This document shows positions 21,038-58,500 of a stretch of 64,000 nt of DNA, one piece after another; within the stretch, counting starts at the first letter, position 1; every line of letters starts with the position of its first letter. The notes under the pieces were generated by a model. It was not told the origin of the DNA. It saw nothing but the letters and a program-made list of their open reading frames with translations, and did no database searches. A program made the translations under genes and the position numbers. Origin of the DNA: a virus (lineage: Duplodnaviria; Caudoviricetes); IMG/VR virus record IMGVR_UViG_3300031867_000018, positions 32,001-96,000 of that record; one strand, given 5' to 3'.

Positions 21038-24000
21038 CCTATAACCCCGTCATTTCGTAAAACATTCATCCATTGACGCTTATCAAATTCTCTTTTACGA
21101 ATATTTTGATAGCTGCTTGTGGGTGTATAGAATCCGACTACCCTTGAATATGTATCTGCGATTGCTTCTCCGCAAACAGGGCACATCTTTTCTGAGATGA
21201 ATGCGTGTTTATGCACACATGTGCTAATTTTTGTCGTGAAAGCAAAATATATAACTCCTTGAGACGCAACATAATTAAGCATATCCCATGCAGTTTCTTC
21301 ATTTGGAAACCTGTTTTCAATATTGATATGAGCTATGCAACCACCACCACATTTTTTATCAAATAAAGAGCCTACTCTACACTTCTCCTGAATAGTGCAT
21401 TTCTCCATTAAAGGAATCCACTGATTCGAGTAGATAAAGTATTTGTTTTGTTCAAATAACAGATTATCCGCCTTACACATAACACCAGCACAGTTTTCAG
21501 CAGGTATCATTTCAATGTTAAAAGTAAAATCACACTCAAAATTGTCTTTTACCTCGTTCATAATATCAAGAATTTTAGTTGTAAATGCGATAGCTTCATC
21601 AGAATAACTTTTACAACCTATCTCATCTGTATTTATTAAACCAAACAAATCCATTACTTCGTATATTCCAATACCACCGATTGTACAGAATTGCTTGTCT
21701 AATTCTACTGCGCCGTCACAATAATTAGGAAGCAAACCCTTTTCAATATTACGCTTAATAATATGGCGCATAGAAGACAATGCTTTACAATCAAGTAAAA
21801 CTCTTTTCTTTAATATCTGTAAGTATTTTGATTGATTAAATTCGCTTTCATAAGCAATGCGCACAAGGTTAATTGTACTTACTCTGCACGATCCAACCGA
21901 AAGAGCAGTTCCACCTATTGAATTAATAAAAGCGTCAAGTTTCTGAGTATCGCTTAATAAACGACAACAATTGGATAATACACCAACATTATCACTTACA
22001 AAGAAGTTACTATCTGACCATTTGATATTATGGTTTGAACACCAACGAGCAAAATCTTCGTCTGCAAACTTGCCGTCTTTGTAAAGTAGTGAATATGTTA
22101 ATACGGGGTATGTAAACATATTAATTTCCCTTGTTTCACTTACAACTTCCATGAAGATTTTTTGACATTCTATCAAATCTTCAATGTGGTCGATAGCAAG
22201 GGTGTTATCAGGAAACTCTACTCCACCGAAAAGAGATTCAAGGTAAGGTCTATCAAATATAGACACATTTGTAACCTTTGTATTCGCAACGGTTCGCTAC
22301 GCCGTTACCGCCCATTAAGGGCTGCTCTATGTCACCATAGAGAGTAGACTATATCACAAACTGTTAAAAACAGTTTCCTTGCACTTCCACCGTCAATCGC
22401 TTACGGTGTACTCCCTTGCGGGATAGTCGTTGAACCTTCCTCATTAGAAGCTTGGCTGCTAATTGTCTTATGTCTTTTATAATTATGTATTTTAAATAAG
22501 TGGCAATCTTTACAATAAGTAATCAAGTTATTATCGTCAAGGAATCTGCTATCTTGAACGATAATTTTATATAAAGCTATCCGTTCATCTATTGTATTTA
22601 TATCATGCTCAGGATGTTCTTTAATTATTTCCTTAATAATATCAGAAAAATGCTTAATATGATGAATGTGTAAGATGGTGTGGGTAGCTCCGCATAATTG
22701 ACAAGTATAATTATCTCTTTTAGCTATTTTAGGCACTTGATTTACTGTAAAATATTCTCTCAATAACAAATATAATGGAGTAATCCCACCTTGCCAATTA
22801 GGATGATTTTCTCCTGTCATTAGCCCTATTTTTGATTCGGAATTATTCATCGTTTCAAGACCCAATCTGTGCATTTGTCTTCGTACTGTACCTGCGTCTA
22901 TTCCGTACATATCTCCTATAGCTTTGCAAGTTAAATGTTGATTCCAGTGCAAGTCGTTCATTTTGTCAATGTTTAACAAATCGGGATGTATTTCTTTGCC
23001 ATTATAATTAAATTGAGCTTCCGACATTCCTCTTGTTTTAATACCTGACTTGGTTAAATATCTGCGGATTGTTCCATTATCGGTATTAAAAAGTAAGCCT
23101 ATTTTATAAGCAGATAACCCTTCGTCACAGTATAACTCAATTATTTTTTGTATTTCATCATCTGTAAATTTATAATGTCGATTTTGCTTAATGATTTGAA
23201 TGCCGTTCTTTTTAAGATTATTATGAATAGCGTCATAAGATACTTTATTTTCTTTGGCTATCTGAGAAACAGACTTGCCTAATTCAACATGATTGTGATA
23301 TAAATATTCATATAATTCATGCTGTTTCTTTTTTCTAACGTGTTTGGTTATAGGTTTGGAAATTTTATGTTTTAACAACCACTGTTGAATTGTATTTTGT
23401 TTACATCCATATTCCTCTGCAATATCTTTAGTACGGCGATCTTTGACTACATACTCTTCATATAACCAATCTTTATCCATCCACGGTTTTTCTCCAGTAT
23501 AACGATTTTTAGGATAATTCATTTAAACACCTCCTTTATTTTATATTCTATTTTTTTATAAGACATAAGATTTTTCAGCAATTCACAAGGTTTGCTATGG
23601 CGGTCGCCCACCATAGGCGCAAACATTTACGCACTTTGGTCAATTCTTAAAAACGGTTGATTTAAACGGAATATCAGCTTTTGAAACTGCTGCCTTAAAT
23701 AATAGTCGGGATTTTTCATATAATATCCGTCTTCACAGTCTTTCTTCCAAAAATACCACGCCCAAATAAGGATATTCGGCATACCCACAGCTCCCGATTG
23801 GCGGTTAGATAAGAAAGAAACAAACTCTATCACATCGTCAAAATATGTTGTTAAATGCTTGGGCGGCTGATTATTGTAGTTTTCAAGAAAAAACAAACCT
23901 TCCGTTGCCAATCTTGTAAAATCATTTGCCCAACAATAAGGGAAATAACTTGCAGTTGTGCTGTCATTCAAATAAAAGCCACGACTAAATTCTTGTTCCA

Positions 24001-51217: not shown

Positions 51218-52693
51218 TCACCGTATATTTTCTCTTATAGTTTTCATGTTCCCGTTATAGTAGTCTATATAGAAGCAATACAGCCGTTCAGCCATTTTTG
51301 TGTAATGTTCTTCATCGTCTACAAAATTATCTATAAGCTCAATGTATTGCTCATCCCACGTTTCACTCCATGCTTCAAGCCAATCGACAAACTGGCTTGT
51401 CCGTTTTTCTTTCTTTAACTGGTTATAAAATTTTAAGTATGCTGGTAGTTCTATATCCGATGCCCCTATTTCTGTAACATAGAATACAACTTCCTCATCA
51501 GATAACGGTACTTCTGTAGCATCGTCTATATAACTTTCTTCTGCATTGATATTCTCTTTGGCTTCATCAAAGTAAGACAACCCTAAATCTCCCGTTGAGA
51601 TAAAATTATCAAGAGCATTATCCATCATATCAATTCTTGCTTCAATATTTTTCTTTGATGATATATTCTTACTATCGTCCTCAACTAACGCCTTAAACTC
51701 TTTTGAATGGACACCTTTGGTAAACCATTCACACATAAACGATTTGTATTCTTCTTCTGTGATCACCTCATTTTCTAACATACTCAAATATTTATCTACA
51801 TTCATGATCAGCACAGGAAAATGTTTTTTATTTACATAATCTGTATATAATTCTTTTTCGGGAAGAACATTGTGTAACGCAGTACATATTACCTCTAACC
51901 CCTCAAATGTACTTTCATTCCACCTATTTGAATATTTCTTGACCAATTTTTCTAATTCGGCAGGTGTTAATTTTGAGTATGAAAAATCATCGTATTCTTG
52001 ACCAGTCAAAAGAACTAAAGCACGAAGAATGAGTTCTTCATAAGCACTTTTCTTCTCTTGGGATGGAGCAAAATAAATACTTCCCGATGTAAATAAAGGA
52101 TTGTTATTAATAAGCGATAATATCCTGTTCATCACAGGAATACTTGCAGCGATTTTTGATTTATCAATACTGCTCATTGCAACCCCATTATTCAGGTTGC
52201 TCATTATTCTTTCTATGTCTTCTTTTGTGTAATCGGAAATATTTTTACTATCGAATTTATACTCAAGAATAATATCTTGCACATCTTCTGGTAAGTCATT
52301 AAATGTTTTTCCTGCAAGTTGAACTTCGGACATAACAGGCTCTACTATTTCTCCGTCTTCACTTTTCTTGTACAATGGAACAAAAACAGACGGGATATCT
52401 TTATGCAATTTCATTTTTTTTGTCACAAACTTCACAACGGTAGAAACTCTTTGTTTTCCGTCTATTAACAATTGAGGAACAGTAAAGTTATTATCCGCAC
52501 AAGCTATAAACAACGGAGGAATTGGATCTCCCATTATGATCGATCTTATCAAATTAGATTCTTTGTGACTGTCCCACTGCCCTGCATATCTCTGAATTGA
52601 GAAATCCATTTCAAAACTTCCGGGAGAGCCTTTAGGTTTGCTCATTTTTTTAATCAATCTTTCAACAACTTCCACACTTGGTTTTATTACCAT
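51218..52693 (-). CDS. DUF262 (ParB/GmrS-like) domain protein
   Basis: IQR..QW, LIRSI..G.PIP, IDGKQR, LNNG. Confidence 0.75.
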   Translation of the reverse strand: MVIKPSVEVVERLIKKMSKPKGSPGSFEMDFSIQRYAGQWDSHKESNLIRSIIMGDPIPPLFIACADNNFTVPQLLIDGKQRVSTVVKFVTKKMKLHKDIPSVFVPLYKKSEDGEIVEPVMSEVQLAGKTFNDLPEDVQDIILEYKFDSKNISDYTKEDIERIMSNLNNGVAMSSIDKSKIAASIPVMNRILSLINNNPLFTSGSIYFAPSQEKKSAYEELILRALVLLTGQEYDDFSYSKLTPAELEKLVKKYSNRWNESTFEGLEVICTALHNVLPEKELYTDYVNKKHFPVLIMNVDKYLSMLENEVITEEEYKSFMCEWFTKGVHSKEFKALVEDDSKNISSKKNIEARIDMMDNALDNFISTGDLGLSYFDEAKENINAEESYIDDATEVPLSDEEVVFYVTEIGASDIELPAYLKFYNQLKKEKRTSQFVDWLEAWSETWDEQYIELIDNFVDDEEHYTKMAERLYCFYIDYYNGNMKTIRENIR

Positions 52694-53292
52694 TCTGACT
52701 TCCTCCTTGCCATAATTGCAGAGATTATATTACTATCTTCCGATATTGTTAAAATATCTCCTTTAACGATACATACGGGGATATTTATTTGTTTACTAAT
52801 TTCTTCGGAGTTATATCCTTTGATTAAATATTCTACAATTTTCTTTTTTCTTAAAGGTAAAAATTGAATTATATCTTTTATATATTTTACATAATCATCA
52901 TTTGTTATCTTAGACTCTACTTCTGGTGAATCTGACTGTATTAAATCAATTAGTTCTATTTCACTTTCGTCACTTATTGATTGATTAAGACTTTGAGCAT
53001 AAGTATTAATTTTACGCTTTTCTCTGTTTAAACTTGTAGCATAGGTTTTCATTTTATTATTAATAATTACGCTGCAAAACGTAAGCAGTTTTGCTCCTTT
53101 GTCGCAATCATATTTTGGTATATTTAAACTTATCTCTAATAAAGCCTGTCCTTCAAAATCATCATAAGTCACATTTAACGGAATAAAAAGTTTTTCAAAT
53201 TTCTTTTTCCATAAAACACGAATTTGATTTAGTATCTGATCGTAGTTTTCGGTTATTAAATCTTTACACTTTTGTTCCATCGTCATCTTCAC
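52687..53292 (-). CDS. Phage sigma-70-family sigma factor (SigH-like)
   Basis: DDF...ALL, YD..KGAK..TF, SLNQSI, GYNSEEISKQINI HTH. Confidence 0.75.
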   Translation of the reverse strand: MKMTMEQKCKDLITENYDQILNQIRVLWKKKFEKLFIPLNVTYDDFEGQALLEISLNIPKYDCDKGAKLLTFCSVIINNKMKTYATSLNREKRKINTYAQSLNQSISDESEIELIDLIQSDSPEVESKITNDDYVKYIKDIIQFLPLRKKKIVEYLIKGYNSEEISKQINIPVCIVKGDILTISEDSNIISAIMARRKSEW

Positions 53293-53397
53293 CTCTTTTA
53301 GCCGAAAACAATAATGCGGTTATGAATAAGCCAAACCAACTGCCTAATATGAAACAAATTATATTTGACATTATAATCCCCTCTTTCGTTTTTGATT

Positions 53398-53639
53398 TTC
53401 AAACCCTTTGAGGAACTCCTGAATACCGATTCGTTAGTACTCAGAAGCTCCATGCAGAAAGGAGATATAACACATGAAATTGGAGCATAGCTCCTCAAAG
53501 GGTTTGAATCTCTTTTGTTGTGCAAATTCTCACTCAAACCCACCGAGGAATCCCTCGACCACAAAGCCGAGAAACTCACATTAATGAAAGGAGAAATTAA
53601 TGAATAATAAATGGAGTATGAACTCCTCGTTAGGTTTGA
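53398..53639 (-). ncRNA. Two tandem ~110-nt structured RNAs with anti-RBS/anti-AUG loops
   Basis: Copies at 53398-53508 and 53534-53639 with shared closing stem and internal hairpins. Confidence 0.6.
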
Positions 53640-54299
53640 AACTGCTTTTTTTGATTATCACAGAAAGCATAAACTGTGTAGAGTGTTTCATATCAACGCT
53701 CTGTTTGTGCATTACGATTCCAGTTTCGGCATCGCTTTACTCAGTCCTGCAAGTACACAGTCGGTTTTGTCTTTATTATTTAGTGCCGATATTTTTGTCA
53801 AAATGTCCGCAAGTGATGGCACAGAATAATCGTTTTCTTTCACTTCAATAGTCATATAAATGCCTCCTTTATGTTTATAAGAGTTGTCCTTACCTACAGC
53901 ATTGGTGTACCTTACTGCATACGGTATTGACCTTGCTCAATCAAACAACTAAACTTATTTCCCGCTTTAATCGGCGGGATTTTTTATAATTTTATATTCC
54001 TGCATAATTATTTCACATAATTGCTCGATTTTCTCCTGAACTTCTTTTTTAATGTGAAAAGCAGAACCTATCGTAATCACAGCTGAAATTTTGCCAAGAT
54101 CGTCTTCATACGGAAAAGAAAACTTACTTGATTTTTCTTGATTTACAATATCCCACGGCATATATCCTTCAATATCTATTTTTACTGGATATTCTGAGCC
54201 GTTACGGAATGTTTTATTTATAAGGAATTTTTTGAGTCTATCATTTTATCTCTCTTTTTATATTGTATATTTTTTTGTTTTGTTGTATAATTAAGAAAA

Positions 54300-55321: not shown

Positions 55322-55438
55322 ATAATAGCACGTTATGAAATGTTTGTCAACATATTTTTTCAATTTGAAACATTTTTTTGATTTTTTCTAAATAATTACA
55401 TATTTACTATTGATTTTCGTTTCATTTTGTGCTATTCT
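55322..55438. promoter_or_regulatory. Divergent promoters of the lysis/lysogeny switch
   Basis: Minus: TTGACA(55350-55345)-17-TATTAT; plus: TTGATT(55410)-17-TATTCT with extended TG; palindrome TTTCAATTTGAAA between them. Confidence 0.7.
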
Positions 55439-55461: not shown

Positions 55462-56253
55462 ATGTTTCAGGACATTATAGAAAAATTAAGAAAAAAAAGA
55501 GAGCTAAAAAAAGTAGATGTAGCAAAAGCTATTGGCGTCGAAGATAGCACTTATAGAAATTATGCGGCAGGTAGACGAGAACCAAGCTATGAAATTCTAT
55601 GTAAACTTGCAGACTTCTACAATGTTACTACTGATTACCTTCTCGGTCGTGAACAACAGCCACCGCCAGACCCAATTGAACAGTTTGTTCAGGGAATGGG
55701 ACTAAGCGAAAACGAAGCAATACTTGTTAAGACTTTCTTTTCTATAAAGAAAGAAAAAAGAAGGGAATTTATCGAAGCATTTTGCATAGGTGCAAGCGAG
55801 GAATTAGAAAAGAAAAAACAGAAATTAGATGCTATCACCGAAGAACAAACTGCTGCAACAGAAGAAAATAGTGATAATATCGTAGAAATACCACTAATGG
55901 TATCACGAGTGTCCGCAGGAACGGGATGTATGCTCTCGGAAGACGAGATTGACGAGATGTTTGAAATTGACAGAAGTATCTACCCTAAAGCCGATTTTGC
56001 TACTAAAGTCCGGGGAGATAGTATGATTCCCCGATTTAATGACGGAGATGTCGTACTTGTACATAAACAAGAAACGATTGAAAGCGGACAAATTGGGGTA
56101 TTTATGCTGAATGGCGACGGATACATAAAGAAATTAGTCGCTGAGAACGGAAAAACAATATTGAGATCTCTTAATTCGGAATATAAAGACATAGAAGTGT
56201 CTGAAAATGATAATCTTATATGTAGGGGGCTTGTATTGTATAGGTTGGAATAA
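55462..56253 (+). CDS. CI-like repressor (XRE HTH + S24 peptidase)
   Basis: HTH ..REPSYEILCKLADFYNVTTDYLLG; VSAG cleavage site, VRGDSM, YIKKL. Confidence 0.92.
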   Translation: MFQDIIEKLRKKRELKKVDVAKAIGVEDSTYRNYAAGRREPSYEILCKLADFYNVTTDYLLGREQQPPPDPIEQFVQGMGLSENEAILVKTFFSIKKEKRREFIEAFCIGASEELEKKKQKLDAITEEQTAATEENSDNIVEIPLMVSRVSAGTGCMLSEDEIDEMFEIDRSIYPKADFATKVRGDSMIPRFNDGDVVLVHKQETIESGQIGVFMLNGDGYIKKLVAENGKTILRSLNSEYKDIEVSENDNLICRGLVLYRLE

Positions 56254-56259
56254 AATCAA

Positions 56260-56290
56260 AGCCGTCTCATGTCCGAGACGGCTTGTTTTT
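56260..56290. terminator. Intrinsic terminator after cI
   Basis: AGCCGTCTC-ATGTCC-GAGACGGCT followed by TGTTTTT. Confidence 0.65.
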
Positions 56291-56437
56291 CATCAATCTA
56301 ATATGATTTTAGTTCCTTTCAAAAAGCTTGTCAATATATTTTTTAGTTTTTCTGAACTTTTTTATTGTTATTTTATTATGGGTGTAATATAATAATTATA
56401 ACGAGGTGATTTATATGAATAATACATTTTCAAAAAG

Positions 56438-56479
56438 AGTGACATACTCCCACCTCTTAGGTGGTGGGAGTATGTCACT
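56438..56479. repeat. 17-bp perfect inverted repeat resembling IS200/IS605 end sequences
   Basis: AGTGACATACTCCCACC-8 nt-GGTGGGAGTATGTCACT. Confidence 0.7.
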
Positions 56480-56496
56480 TTGTTGATTATGTAAAT

Positions 56497-57189
56497 TTAT
56501 AAACTATTTTCTTTTGTAACTGCTGCGTTATGTATACACGAAACCAAATTGTAAACTTCATTTATGCAGTTATCAACATAGTTCTCGTTTATATCTTCCT
56601 GAATAGCTGTTTCGTGCTTTCTGTCTATTTGGTGGGCAATTTGGTTCCTTCTTTGAAATAAATTTACAACAAATTGCTTTCCTGTTTCGTAAGAAGAAAA
56701 CGCAGACGATAAAACATCTTTGAAAGAAATTCCCATTAAATTTACTTGATCTTTCATTTGTTCAAAACCTAAGTAAACTTCTTTACTGAATCTTTCATTT
56801 AAGTATTCTGTCAACCATTGTACTGATTCGGGTGCAGCAATACCTTTTTCGATATACTTCATCGAAACCATAAGATTTTGATATTTTAAAGATTTTTCCC
56901 AACGACCGACAAACATGCTACTTATTGCATATTTGCTTAGTTCATGAAGATAAAAGTCGAGTATGGATTCGATAAATACTATTTGCGAACGTAAAACATT
57001 CTTTCCTTCGGTTTCCTTTGATTGATTTATTAATTCTCTTGCTATAGGAGTTTGGTTTTTTATATACTCAAGACTTTCGTCAAAATGCTGTTTTATCTCA
57101 TCTAAGCTAAAATTAACTACTGTTTTAGTTGGTATAGGATCACGGGTATTCTCAGGACGCTGAGATAAAGAAAGACTAATATTGTCCAT
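56497..57189 (-). CDS. HEPN-domain protein (putative RNase)
   Basis: RRNQIAH (RxxxxH) motif; ES.LDFYLHE helix. Confidence 0.7.
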   Translation of the reverse strand: MDNISLSLSQRPENTRDPIPTKTVVNFSLDEIKQHFDESLEYIKNQTPIARELINQSKETEGKNVLRSQIVFIESILDFYLHELSKYAISSMFVGRWEKSLKYQNLMVSMKYIEKGIAAPESVQWLTEYLNERFSKEVYLGFEQMKDQVNLMGISFKDVLSSAFSSYETGKQFVVNLFQRRNQIAHQIDRKHETAIQEDINENYVDNCINEVYNLVSCIHNAAVTKENSL

Positions 57190-57190
57190 T

Positions 57191-58447
57191 CTATTCCTTC
57201 TTTCTCTCGGTGAATAATTTGGCAAGATTATTATTTAACATGGGTATTGCTCCGTATTTGCCGTTAATGTAGCCTCTGTGAATGTTATCGTCTTTCCGGA
57301 CATTTTTTATTTCCGCAAGAGAATATAAATCTGTTGACCTATCTTCCTCTTTTAATTCTGTAAACCATATTTGATCCCTTCTGAAAAGAGACAAATCAAG
57401 TATGCTTGTATTATGAGTTGTAAAAAACAATTGAGCCGGAAAAGTATCTTCTAAATCGGCAAAAGTCTTTATTATGTTATATATCAATGCTTCATGGAAA
57501 TTTATTTCAAGTTCATCGCAAAACAAGATTCTATGATTTTCTATAATGTCCATCAAAGGACAAGCAAACTCGAATATTTTTTTTACTCCATCAGATTCTT
57601 CGGACAATAAGTTTGTCTCAAATGTATCATATACTATATATGCATCTAATCGCTCCGAATATGAGTCAATGATACGGGTTTTAAGTTCTTCACTTAAAAT
57701 AGATAAAAAATTATCATTTTTCAAATCCTGTTTTTTTATTTCTATTCTTATGTCCTGTATGTTAACTCCCAAAGCGTTGGCAAAATTAATCACCTGTTTT
57801 TTTACAGCAGGATTCTTTTTGATTGATGTAAGAGATTTTTCCAGCCAATTTTCATTTGTTTTTTTTCCATAAAAAATCATATCGTCTTTAAAGAAGGAAA
57901 ATACATCTTTAACAACATCTACTTGACTAAAATTAGCAGCACATGATAAAAAAAGGCGATTTGGGGCAATAACATCTTTACAAGTATCAAACTTTCTCTT
58001 AAATTTGTCACCTGATGCATAAGAATTATTTTCTCTTTCAAATATTTTTACGGCTCTGCCGTTTGGAAAATAATATAAATACTCCCCGGAAACCTCATTT
58101 TTGCACAACGAAAAACTATATACATATCTTATATTATTTTTGATAAACTGCATATAATACTCGCTTTTTTCATTCTCTCCCAATAATTTATGTGGCAACT
58201 GGTGGATCATCGTACCGGGTTGATGACTGATACTGTTTAGAACTAATCTTTTTACATACATGATGGCATCTATGAAATTACTTTTCCCGGAACCATTAGC
58301 ACCATATATAACAGCACTTTTAAGTATTTTATATTTTCCAAAAGAAAACAATCGTTCTTGAAATGTATCATCTGTACCTGCGAGTGCAGAAAAAGTTACT
58401 TTATCTTTTATGGATTTATGATTAGAGCATGAAAATTCCAACAGCAT
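57191..58447 (-). CDS. AAA_21 / RloA-AbiLi-type ABC-like ATPase
   Basis: IYGANGSGKSN, ESDGVKK, CDELE, QLFFTTH, RRDQIWF, Y.NGKYGAIP. Confidence 0.88.
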   Translation of the reverse strand: MLLEFSCSNHKSIKDKVTFSALAGTDDTFQERLFSFGKYKILKSAVIYGANGSGKSNFIDAIMYVKRLVLNSISHQPGTMIHQLPHKLLGENEKSEYYMQFIKNNIRYVYSFSLCKNEVSGEYLYYFPNGRAVKIFERENNSYASGDKFKRKFDTCKDVIAPNRLFLSCAANFSQVDVVKDVFSFFKDDMIFYGKKTNENWLEKSLTSIKKNPAVKKQVINFANALGVNIQDIRIEIKKQDLKNDNFLSILSEELKTRIIDSYSERLDAYIVYDTFETNLLSEESDGVKKIFEFACPLMDIIENHRILFCDELEINFHEALIYNIIKTFADLEDTFPAQLFFTTHNTSILDLSLFRRDQIWFTELKEEDRSTDLYSLAEIKNVRKDDNIHRGYINGKYGAIPMLNNNLAKLFTERKKE

Positions 58448-58471
58448 AGTAAAACCTCCTCGATTGCACAT

Positions 58472-58500
58472 ATTATACCACCTTTCTTATGATTTGACAA
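58472..58500 (-). promoter_or_regulatory. sigmaA promoter for the ATPase-HEPN operon
   Basis: TTGTCA-17 bp-TATAAT with TG extension. Confidence 0.65.

Follow-up and report, generated by a model that had tools for sequence, protein, structure and literature searches.

What is encoded by a gap of 340 nt without genes in the early operon of a phage, and on what would its products act? Two tandem, paralogous units of approximately 108-111 bp occupy this gap, both in the same orientation as the operon. The first-pass annotation regarded them as small RNAs with a common scaffold and variable loops antisense to translation start sites, and proposed that they form a programmable array with swappable guides. 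In this work, the fold, the strand, the loops, the possible targets and the relatives of the units were analysed, and the explanations that they allow were compared.

The window (the whole stretch of DNA analysed, 64,000 nucleotides) is part of a virus record of 109,015 bp with direct terminal repeats and a G+C content of 34%. The portal protein of this phage (L027:1370-2974, plus strand, equivalent to G000 21370-22974) showed approximately 42% identity to those of SPR/SPbeta-type Bacillus phages, which makes the phage a member of the wider SPbeta-like group; the same protein was also approximately 42% identical to the portal of a 176-kb human-gut phage record, and the DnaE-like polymerase was 42% identical to that of Brevibacillus phage Sundance. 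The host is Gram-positive-like, and a host search with the portal protein gave no match in 401 sampled genomes of one phylum. The phage carries a cI-type S24 repressor despite its SPbeta-like affiliation. Two strong bidirectional terminators (56259-56284 and 56436-56481) part the repressor gene from a HEPN/ATPase cassette, a pair of AAA_21 ATPase and RiboL-PSP HEPN genes (56497-58471, minus strand) with its own near-consensus promoter (58472-58500, minus strand).

The location of the units in the early leftward operon, as originally described, was confirmed by the presence upstream of the cI-like S24 repressor gene and of a strong leftward promoter (Table 1), which is, on sequence grounds, the likely source of minus-strand transcripts running through both units. 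The 47-aa ORF on their upstream side had no relatives, and the neighbouring small ORFs were singletons in the protein collection; no relatives were found for a neighbouring protein of 491 aa, and the putative sigma factor had a single one (47% identical), encoded on a 1-kb contig. On the downstream side, the SD sequence of the 35-aa ORF starts approximately 10 nt past unit 1, and this ORF overlaps the start of the sigma-like gene. The 35-aa product resembles small membrane peptides of the holin, toxin or anti-sigma kind, and was also a singleton in the protein collection. Two further promoter candidates flank the units: the one on the minus strand would place the transcription start 4-6 nt ahead of unit 2 and is at chance level for AT-rich DNA; the one on the plus strand has a poor -35 and a pyrimidine start, and is also at chance level (88 promoter-like sites were found vs. 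76 expected). No intrinsic terminator was found after either unit on the minus strand, which fits RNAs that are embedded in an operon and need processing.

Table 1. Features of the locus and its neighbourhood (positions in the window; helices and loops refer to the minus-strand RNA).
Feature	Position	Strand	Description
cI-like HTH-S24 repressor gene	55462-56253	plus	upstream of the units
Strong early leftward promoter	55322-55350	minus	near-consensus (TTGACA, 17 nt, TG-TATTAT); faces the cI-like repressor gene
Intrinsic terminator	53960-53985	plus	canonical; 7-pair G+C-rich stem followed by six T
47-aa orphan ORF	53712-53855	minus	strong SD; upstream neighbour of the units
ORF-B	53600-53851	plus	83 codons; starts at the loop 2 SD-ATG; second half mirrors the 47-aa ORF in antisense
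Candidate extended -10 promoter	53654-53682	minus	TCTACA, 17 nt, TG-n-GATAAT; weak
Unit 2	53533-53640	minus	5' unit; -40.2 kcal/mol, z -5.9
Unit 2, P1 arms	53620-53640 and 53533-53552	minus	
Unit 2, P2 arms	53612-53617 and 53574-53580	minus	
Unit 2, loop	53581-53611	minus	31 nt; anti-SD UCUCCUUUC at 53586-53594, CAU at 53600-53602
Unit 2, P3 hairpin	53553-53572	minus	
Spacer between units	53509-53532	minus	24 nt
ORF-A	53474-53584	plus	36 codons; starts at the loop 1 SD-ATG
Unit 1	53398-53508	minus	3' unit; -51.0 kcal/mol, z -7.8
Unit 1, P1 arms	53489-53508 and 53398-53417	minus	
Unit 1, P2 arms	53481-53486 and 53447-53452	minus	
Unit 1, loop	53453-53480	minus	28 nt; anti-SD UCUCCUUUC at 53457-53465, CAU at 53474-53476
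Unit 1, P3 arms	53436-53445 and 53418-53427	minus	8-nt hairpin loop
Candidate promoter	53349-53377	plus	ATGAAA, 17 nt, TATAAT; 20 nt before unit 1
35-aa ORF	53264-53371	minus	one hydrophobic helix and acidic tail; downstream neighbour of the units
Sigma-factor-like gene	52687-53292	minus	approximately 199 aa; next downstream gene of the same operon

The three-stem architecture attributed to the two adjacent units was found in both. Each was closed by a helix of 20 pairs (P1), unbroken in unit 1 and with one A.G mismatch in unit 2, and inside this helix were located a 6-pair helix (P2), which closes the long loop, and a hairpin (P3). The resulting three-way junction was the minimum-energy fold of unit 2, whereas in unit 1 it was 1.1 kcal/mol above an alternative conformer. 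This second conformer, preferred by RNAalifold, differed in energy from the three-way junction by no more than approximately 1 kcal/mol in either unit. It combined the outer part of P1 with a 5' hairpin of 5 pairs and a longer P3, and converted the loop into a single-stranded linker; the segment of approximately 30 nt was consequently free in either conformer. Four covarying positions preserved both conformers, and the maintenance of the second one in the two copies is a hint of a switch.

The minus strand was also upheld as the strand of the transcript. Folding of the plus strand was weaker (-39.6 kcal/mol for unit 1 and -26.3 kcal/mol for unit 2), the scaffold of unit 2 collapsed when folded in this orientation, and the whole stretch of 261 nt had a z-score of -7.3 on the minus strand vs. 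-3.9 on the plus strand. Eleven G-U pairs were present on the minus strand and no A.C mismatches, corresponding to approximately 7 independent events. When the window was searched with a covariance model built from unit 1 alone, unit 2 was the only match (45 bits). In the structural alignment fitted to this model, 70 of the 72 cells were paired, compared with only 29-54% in slid controls, a difference to be read with the fitting of the alignment to the structure in mind. Both sides had changed in 9 of the 36 pairs (4 in P1, 1 in P2 and 4 in P3); RNAalifold counted 8 doubly changed pairs, and the two clearest double changes of P1 were also present in a plain MAFFT alignment. The excess of G-U pairs over A.C mismatches (11 vs. 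0), together with the compensated helices, argues for selection on a folded minus-strand RNA and not on a DNA palindrome. Since no homologues were found, this covariation is that of two paralogues only. The two units are a real orphan pair of structured RNAs of the minus strand, shaped by selection and bearing anti-start-site loops.

Relatives of the units were sought in several collections. Rfam gave no match at gathering score in the window, nor at E-values up to 10 between 53300 and 53750, the C4, DicF and csRNA models being included in these searches, and a tRNA/tmRNA scan gave nothing. No homologue was retrieved by blastn against 50,697 phage records or by two scaffold patterns in IMG/VR. 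A scaffold-pattern scan of JGI metagenomes gave 2 matches, both unrelated, and a scan of 185,579 species genomes gave 18, which were at chance level and confined to the closing stems; the two of them that were folded were simple long palindromes. One chance match of the pattern scans in a Bacillota MAG (L012:6431-6550), unrelated to the units, was a near-perfect hairpin of approximately 120 nt (z -12.6 on one strand). Covariance model R2 found no further copy in the phage's own genome, and none in one IMG/VR relative, SPR, Sundance or the portal-related gut phage. By sequence and model comparison, the units belong to none of the DicF, C4 and csRNA families. A hammerhead or other ribozyme was rejected on account of junction strands that are too short and the lack of an Rfam match, as was kinship with the TnpB/CRISPR region of the phage, to which no similarity was found.

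The loops corresponded to the earlier description of them as complements of translation start regions: both were exposed, exact complements of AAAGGAG-N6/9-ATG, in which CAU precedes the anti-SD sequence UCUCCUUUC by 9 nt in unit 1 and by 6 nt in unit 2; this anti-SD sequence matches the 3' tail of 16S rRNA. The probability that this 9-mer is unpaired was 0.93 in unit 1 and 0.96 in unit 2, calculated in a context of 651 nt. The genome contains 46 copies of the motif CTCCTTT, and nearly all of them are complementary to a gene start. Within the block of minus-oriented genes (approximately 17.5-73 kb), the two loops are the only places where the motif is on the sense strand, and these copies are therefore not background. 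The helices are kept by compensation, but the proposal that the scaffold is conserved while the loop differs was overstated. The loops were identical at 17 of 31 positions (55%, shuffle p 0.016), as expected of diverged homologues, and they had diverged like the stems, for which identity ranged from 50 to 68% (14/21 and 14/20 in the P1 arms, 5/10 in each P3 arm). The 9-nt anti-SD block was the same in both loops and the remainder had drifted.

No phage target stood out for these loops. A whole-genome duplex scan of the phage (45-nt windows) gave no outlier, the best non-self duplexes of loop 1 (-26.5 and -25.8 kcal/mol) falling within the continuum, and neither did a scan of 301 candidate start sites in the phage (mean -12.8, sd 4.2), among which the neighbouring sites (47-aa ORF, sigma-like gene and 35-aa ORF) ranked from 26th to 127th. 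The longest exact loop matches elsewhere in the phage genome were of 11-12 nt and represented generic SD sequence; the sole perfect partners of the loops were the start sites on the plus strand of the same locus. The specific phage targets envisaged by the first-pass annotation were thus not recovered, the best non-self duplexes (-25 to -26.5 kcal/mol) being part of a continuum, and the resemblance that it noted between copy 2 and the start of the ORF at 2335 was generic (-18.9 kcal/mol). It had also named, beforehand, loop matches no better than generic SD complementarity as a result that would refute it, and those in the phage were no better than this. The best non-self phage partner of loop 1 was the start of the ATPase gene of the AAA_21/HEPN pair, with pairing at 20 of 21 positions, including 4 G-U pairs; it was no statistical outlier. 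Two other roles for the loops were considered and rejected: sequestration of the SD of the following gene (pairing was weak) and a ring like that of phi29 pRNA (the loops are not complementary to each other).

Outside the phage, the 23-nt core of loop 1 had no exact match in 185,579 species genomes. Searches of IMG/VR with a 21-mer and a 24-mer of the loops, calibrated against 108 control start sites, gave a few matches. The sense sequence of loop 1 had a 24-nt match to a gene start in contig L032, from an unrelated virus (44% G+C), where it is the start site of an orphan 35-aa gene (L032:7738-7845, minus strand) just upstream of an SSB gene; there was no scaffold around it. Beyond the 24-mer, the following codons agreed at 7 of 15 nt, 5 of them consecutive, the first five codons resembling those of ORF-A; among the matches listed, a comparable 5-nt run was seen for none of the 108 control start sites of the same class, and the probability of the exact spacer was 1.3-1.9e-5. 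Loop 2 had a weaker match of 25 nt in viral contig L035 (27% G+C). The rough chance expectation of these 24- and 25-nt matches in viral contigs is approximately 0.02-0.15; as sequence matches they are at most suggestive, and the one in L032 is better taken as a lead than as a result.

The explanation preferred here, though tentatively, is that the units are operon-embedded RNAs that would block translation by antisense pairing, in the manner of DicF or C4. The modules would be made from the minus strand within the early leftward transcript, with additional transcription possibly starting at the weak promoter just upstream of unit 2, and a double-strand-specific RNase cutting the closing helix would probably free them from the operon transcript. 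The 20-pair helix would hold the two hairpins and leave approximately 30 nt free, carrying the mimic of the 16S tail, UCUCCUUUC, and CAU at start-codon distance; this segment is predicted to pair with at least one mRNA over its ribosome-binding site and start codon, which would probably block the initiation of translation. The target may be a host mRNA, an mRNA of a competing phage or the plus-strand transcript of the locus itself. Support for antisense action comes from the minus-strand fold, far stronger than the plus-strand fold and than shuffled sequences, and doubt from the failure to find a phage target beyond generic SD complementarity. The plus strand, moreover, bears all the signs of real start sites, so the content of the loops could be selected from the other strand.

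According to this last, rather unlikely explanation, the SD-ATG sites of the loops start small ORFs on the plus strand (ORF-A and ORF-B), and the minus-strand RNA would be their cis-encoded antisense partner. The plus-strand transcript would oppose the early operon and end at the intrinsic terminator listed in Table 1, with the loops making kissing contacts; variants are a pair similar to type I toxin-antitoxin systems and a convergent-transcription switch gating the sigma-like gene. P22 sar/ant, IS10 RNA-OUT/RNA-IN, hok/sok and pCF10 prgQ/prgX offer models of a start-site complement presented in a loop. The start sites themselves are credible: AGGAG-N5-10-ATG occurs 59 times in the genome and approximately 50 of these are real gene starts, so that the loop sites could also be genuine; nearly all the copies of CTCCTTT, as described above, mark a gene start on the opposite strand; the stop codon of ORF-A immediately precedes the SD of ORF-B; and the start and first five codons of ORF-A are like those of the real small gene in L032. 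What follows the start sites is less gene-like. Codon usage was non-coding-like in both ORFs (-6.25 for ORF-A and -6.02 for ORF-B vs. -5.4 to -5.5 for real genes), ORF-B scored in its second half as the antisense frame of the 47-aa ORF, the two peptides shared only the translated scaffold, and the compensatory changes of the stems were non-synonymous in both. No homologues of these ORFs were found, and the gene caller of the protein collection chose minus-strand ORFs instead. The translation of the plus strand from these ATGs, which the first-pass annotation had named as a threat to its own reading, is weakened but retains some probability.

Transcription signals at the locus can also be read from the plus strand. 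The face-to-face promoter-like sites flank the two units exactly, though both are weak and at chance level. The plus-strand terminator, located 110 nt past ORF-B, is among the few convincing ones in 18 kb; it lies inside the minus-strand gene block, overlapping the stop codon of a 64-aa minus-strand ORF, and implies some plus-strand transcript, possibly antisense to the start of the 47-aa ORF. Folded as plus strand, however, unit 2 loses its scaffold and its SD is only 21% unpaired. As for the toxin-antitoxin variant, a small hydrophobic toxin ORF conserved between the copies and opposite to, or overlapping, an antisense RNA was not found: ORF-A is hydrophilic, and the hydrophobic 35-aa ORF shares its strand with the RNA instead of lying opposite it.

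An unlikely alternative is that the units are cis-acting leader or processing elements, that is, RNase III-type sites, stabilisers or a bistable leader for the 35-aa ORF and the sigma-like gene, in which the anti-SD sequence would have no role in trans. Repeated processing hairpins are present in the early transcripts of phages such as T7 and SP82, and P1 has the form of such a hairpin, a helix of approximately two turns within the predicted operon transcript; its 20 pairs are close to the length required by a double-strand RNase. The SD of the next ORF lies approximately 10 nt beyond the units, the interval containing no terminator, and both units fold into two near-isoenergetic conformers preserved by the four covarying positions, as would be the case for a switch. 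This alternative, however, gives no reason for an exposed and conserved 9-nt anti-SD sequence accompanied by CAU at start-codon spacing in both units. The pairing of the loops with neighbouring start sites was, furthermore, unremarkable, and there are no downstream terminators calling for an antiterminator.

An extended form of the proposed array would comprise operon-embedded antisense modules that can be cut out, each displaying captured complements of foreign start sites on a constant three-helix scaffold and each silencing one specific gene, either of the host or of a competitor phage. Should this be true, the match in L032 would be a real target or the source of a guide, and the locus would represent a natural, RNA-only interference system directed at start sites. 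This form appears improbable. The programmable array with swappable guides is not supported by the present evidence: there are only two units, and their loops are diverged homologues (p 0.016) no more different from each other than the stems are. Two copies of a miniature inverted-repeat element or other palindrome acting at the DNA level, with no RNA function, are hardly credible, since the length of approximately 108-111 bp, the terminal inverted repeats of 17-20 bp and the tandem arrangement that suggest such an element are outweighed by the presence of only two copies in the genome and of none in the viral, metagenome or genome collections, by the absence of target-site duplications, and by the 11-to-0 ratio of G-U to A.C and the compensated internal helices, which point to a selected minus-strand RNA.

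Taking the preferred reading of operon-embedded antisense RNAs, the units may be compared with several known systems. [quoted passage not shown] Like DicF, the units would be non-coding RNAs of an early operon, just below a cI/cro-like immunity switch; unlike DicF, a single RNA of 53 nt with a terminator-like 3' end, they are two closed three-helix modules of approximately 110 nt.

The C4 RNA of P1 and P7 has three stems and is released by processing of a longer transcript; its specificity resides in the loops, one of which occludes a ribosome-binding site (PMC5320573). The units share with it the closed three-helix architecture with a terminal helix, and their excision from an operon transcript is predicted. 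They differ in that the targets of C4 are downstream in its own operon, where no such sites were found in this case, and in that C4 uses two short loops, whereas each unit exposes one long segment running from SD to AUG and has no RNase P-type features. The P4 CI RNA is grouped with C4 as a closed antisense RNA processed from an operon.

The csRNAs of streptococci carry anti-SD and anti-AUG sequences and show that these are functional in low-G+C Gram-positive bacteria (PMC4507080). Similarly, the units are sibling RNAs with unpaired anti-SD and anti-AUG sequences, which in the second conformer lie between two hairpins. The csRNAs are encoded in the chromosome, each with a CiaR-dependent promoter and a terminator of its own; the units, on the contrary, have no terminators, lie inside a phage operon with one weak promoter-like site, and are enclosed by a 20-pair helix. 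With the cis-encoded pairs (P22 sar/ant, IS10 RNA-OUT/RNA-IN and hok/sok), the units have in common an exact start-site complement in a loop and a potential target site on the opposite strand, but the target in those pairs is a clear protein gene, whereas the plus-strand ORFs found here are non-coding-like and different between the units.

If the RNAs are made and act as predicted, a Gram-positive, SPbeta-like example would join the few phage RNAs that mask start sites (C4, CI and DicF), and would do so with an unusual design: a closed, excisable scaffold that displays the complement of an entire start site, from the SD through the AUG.
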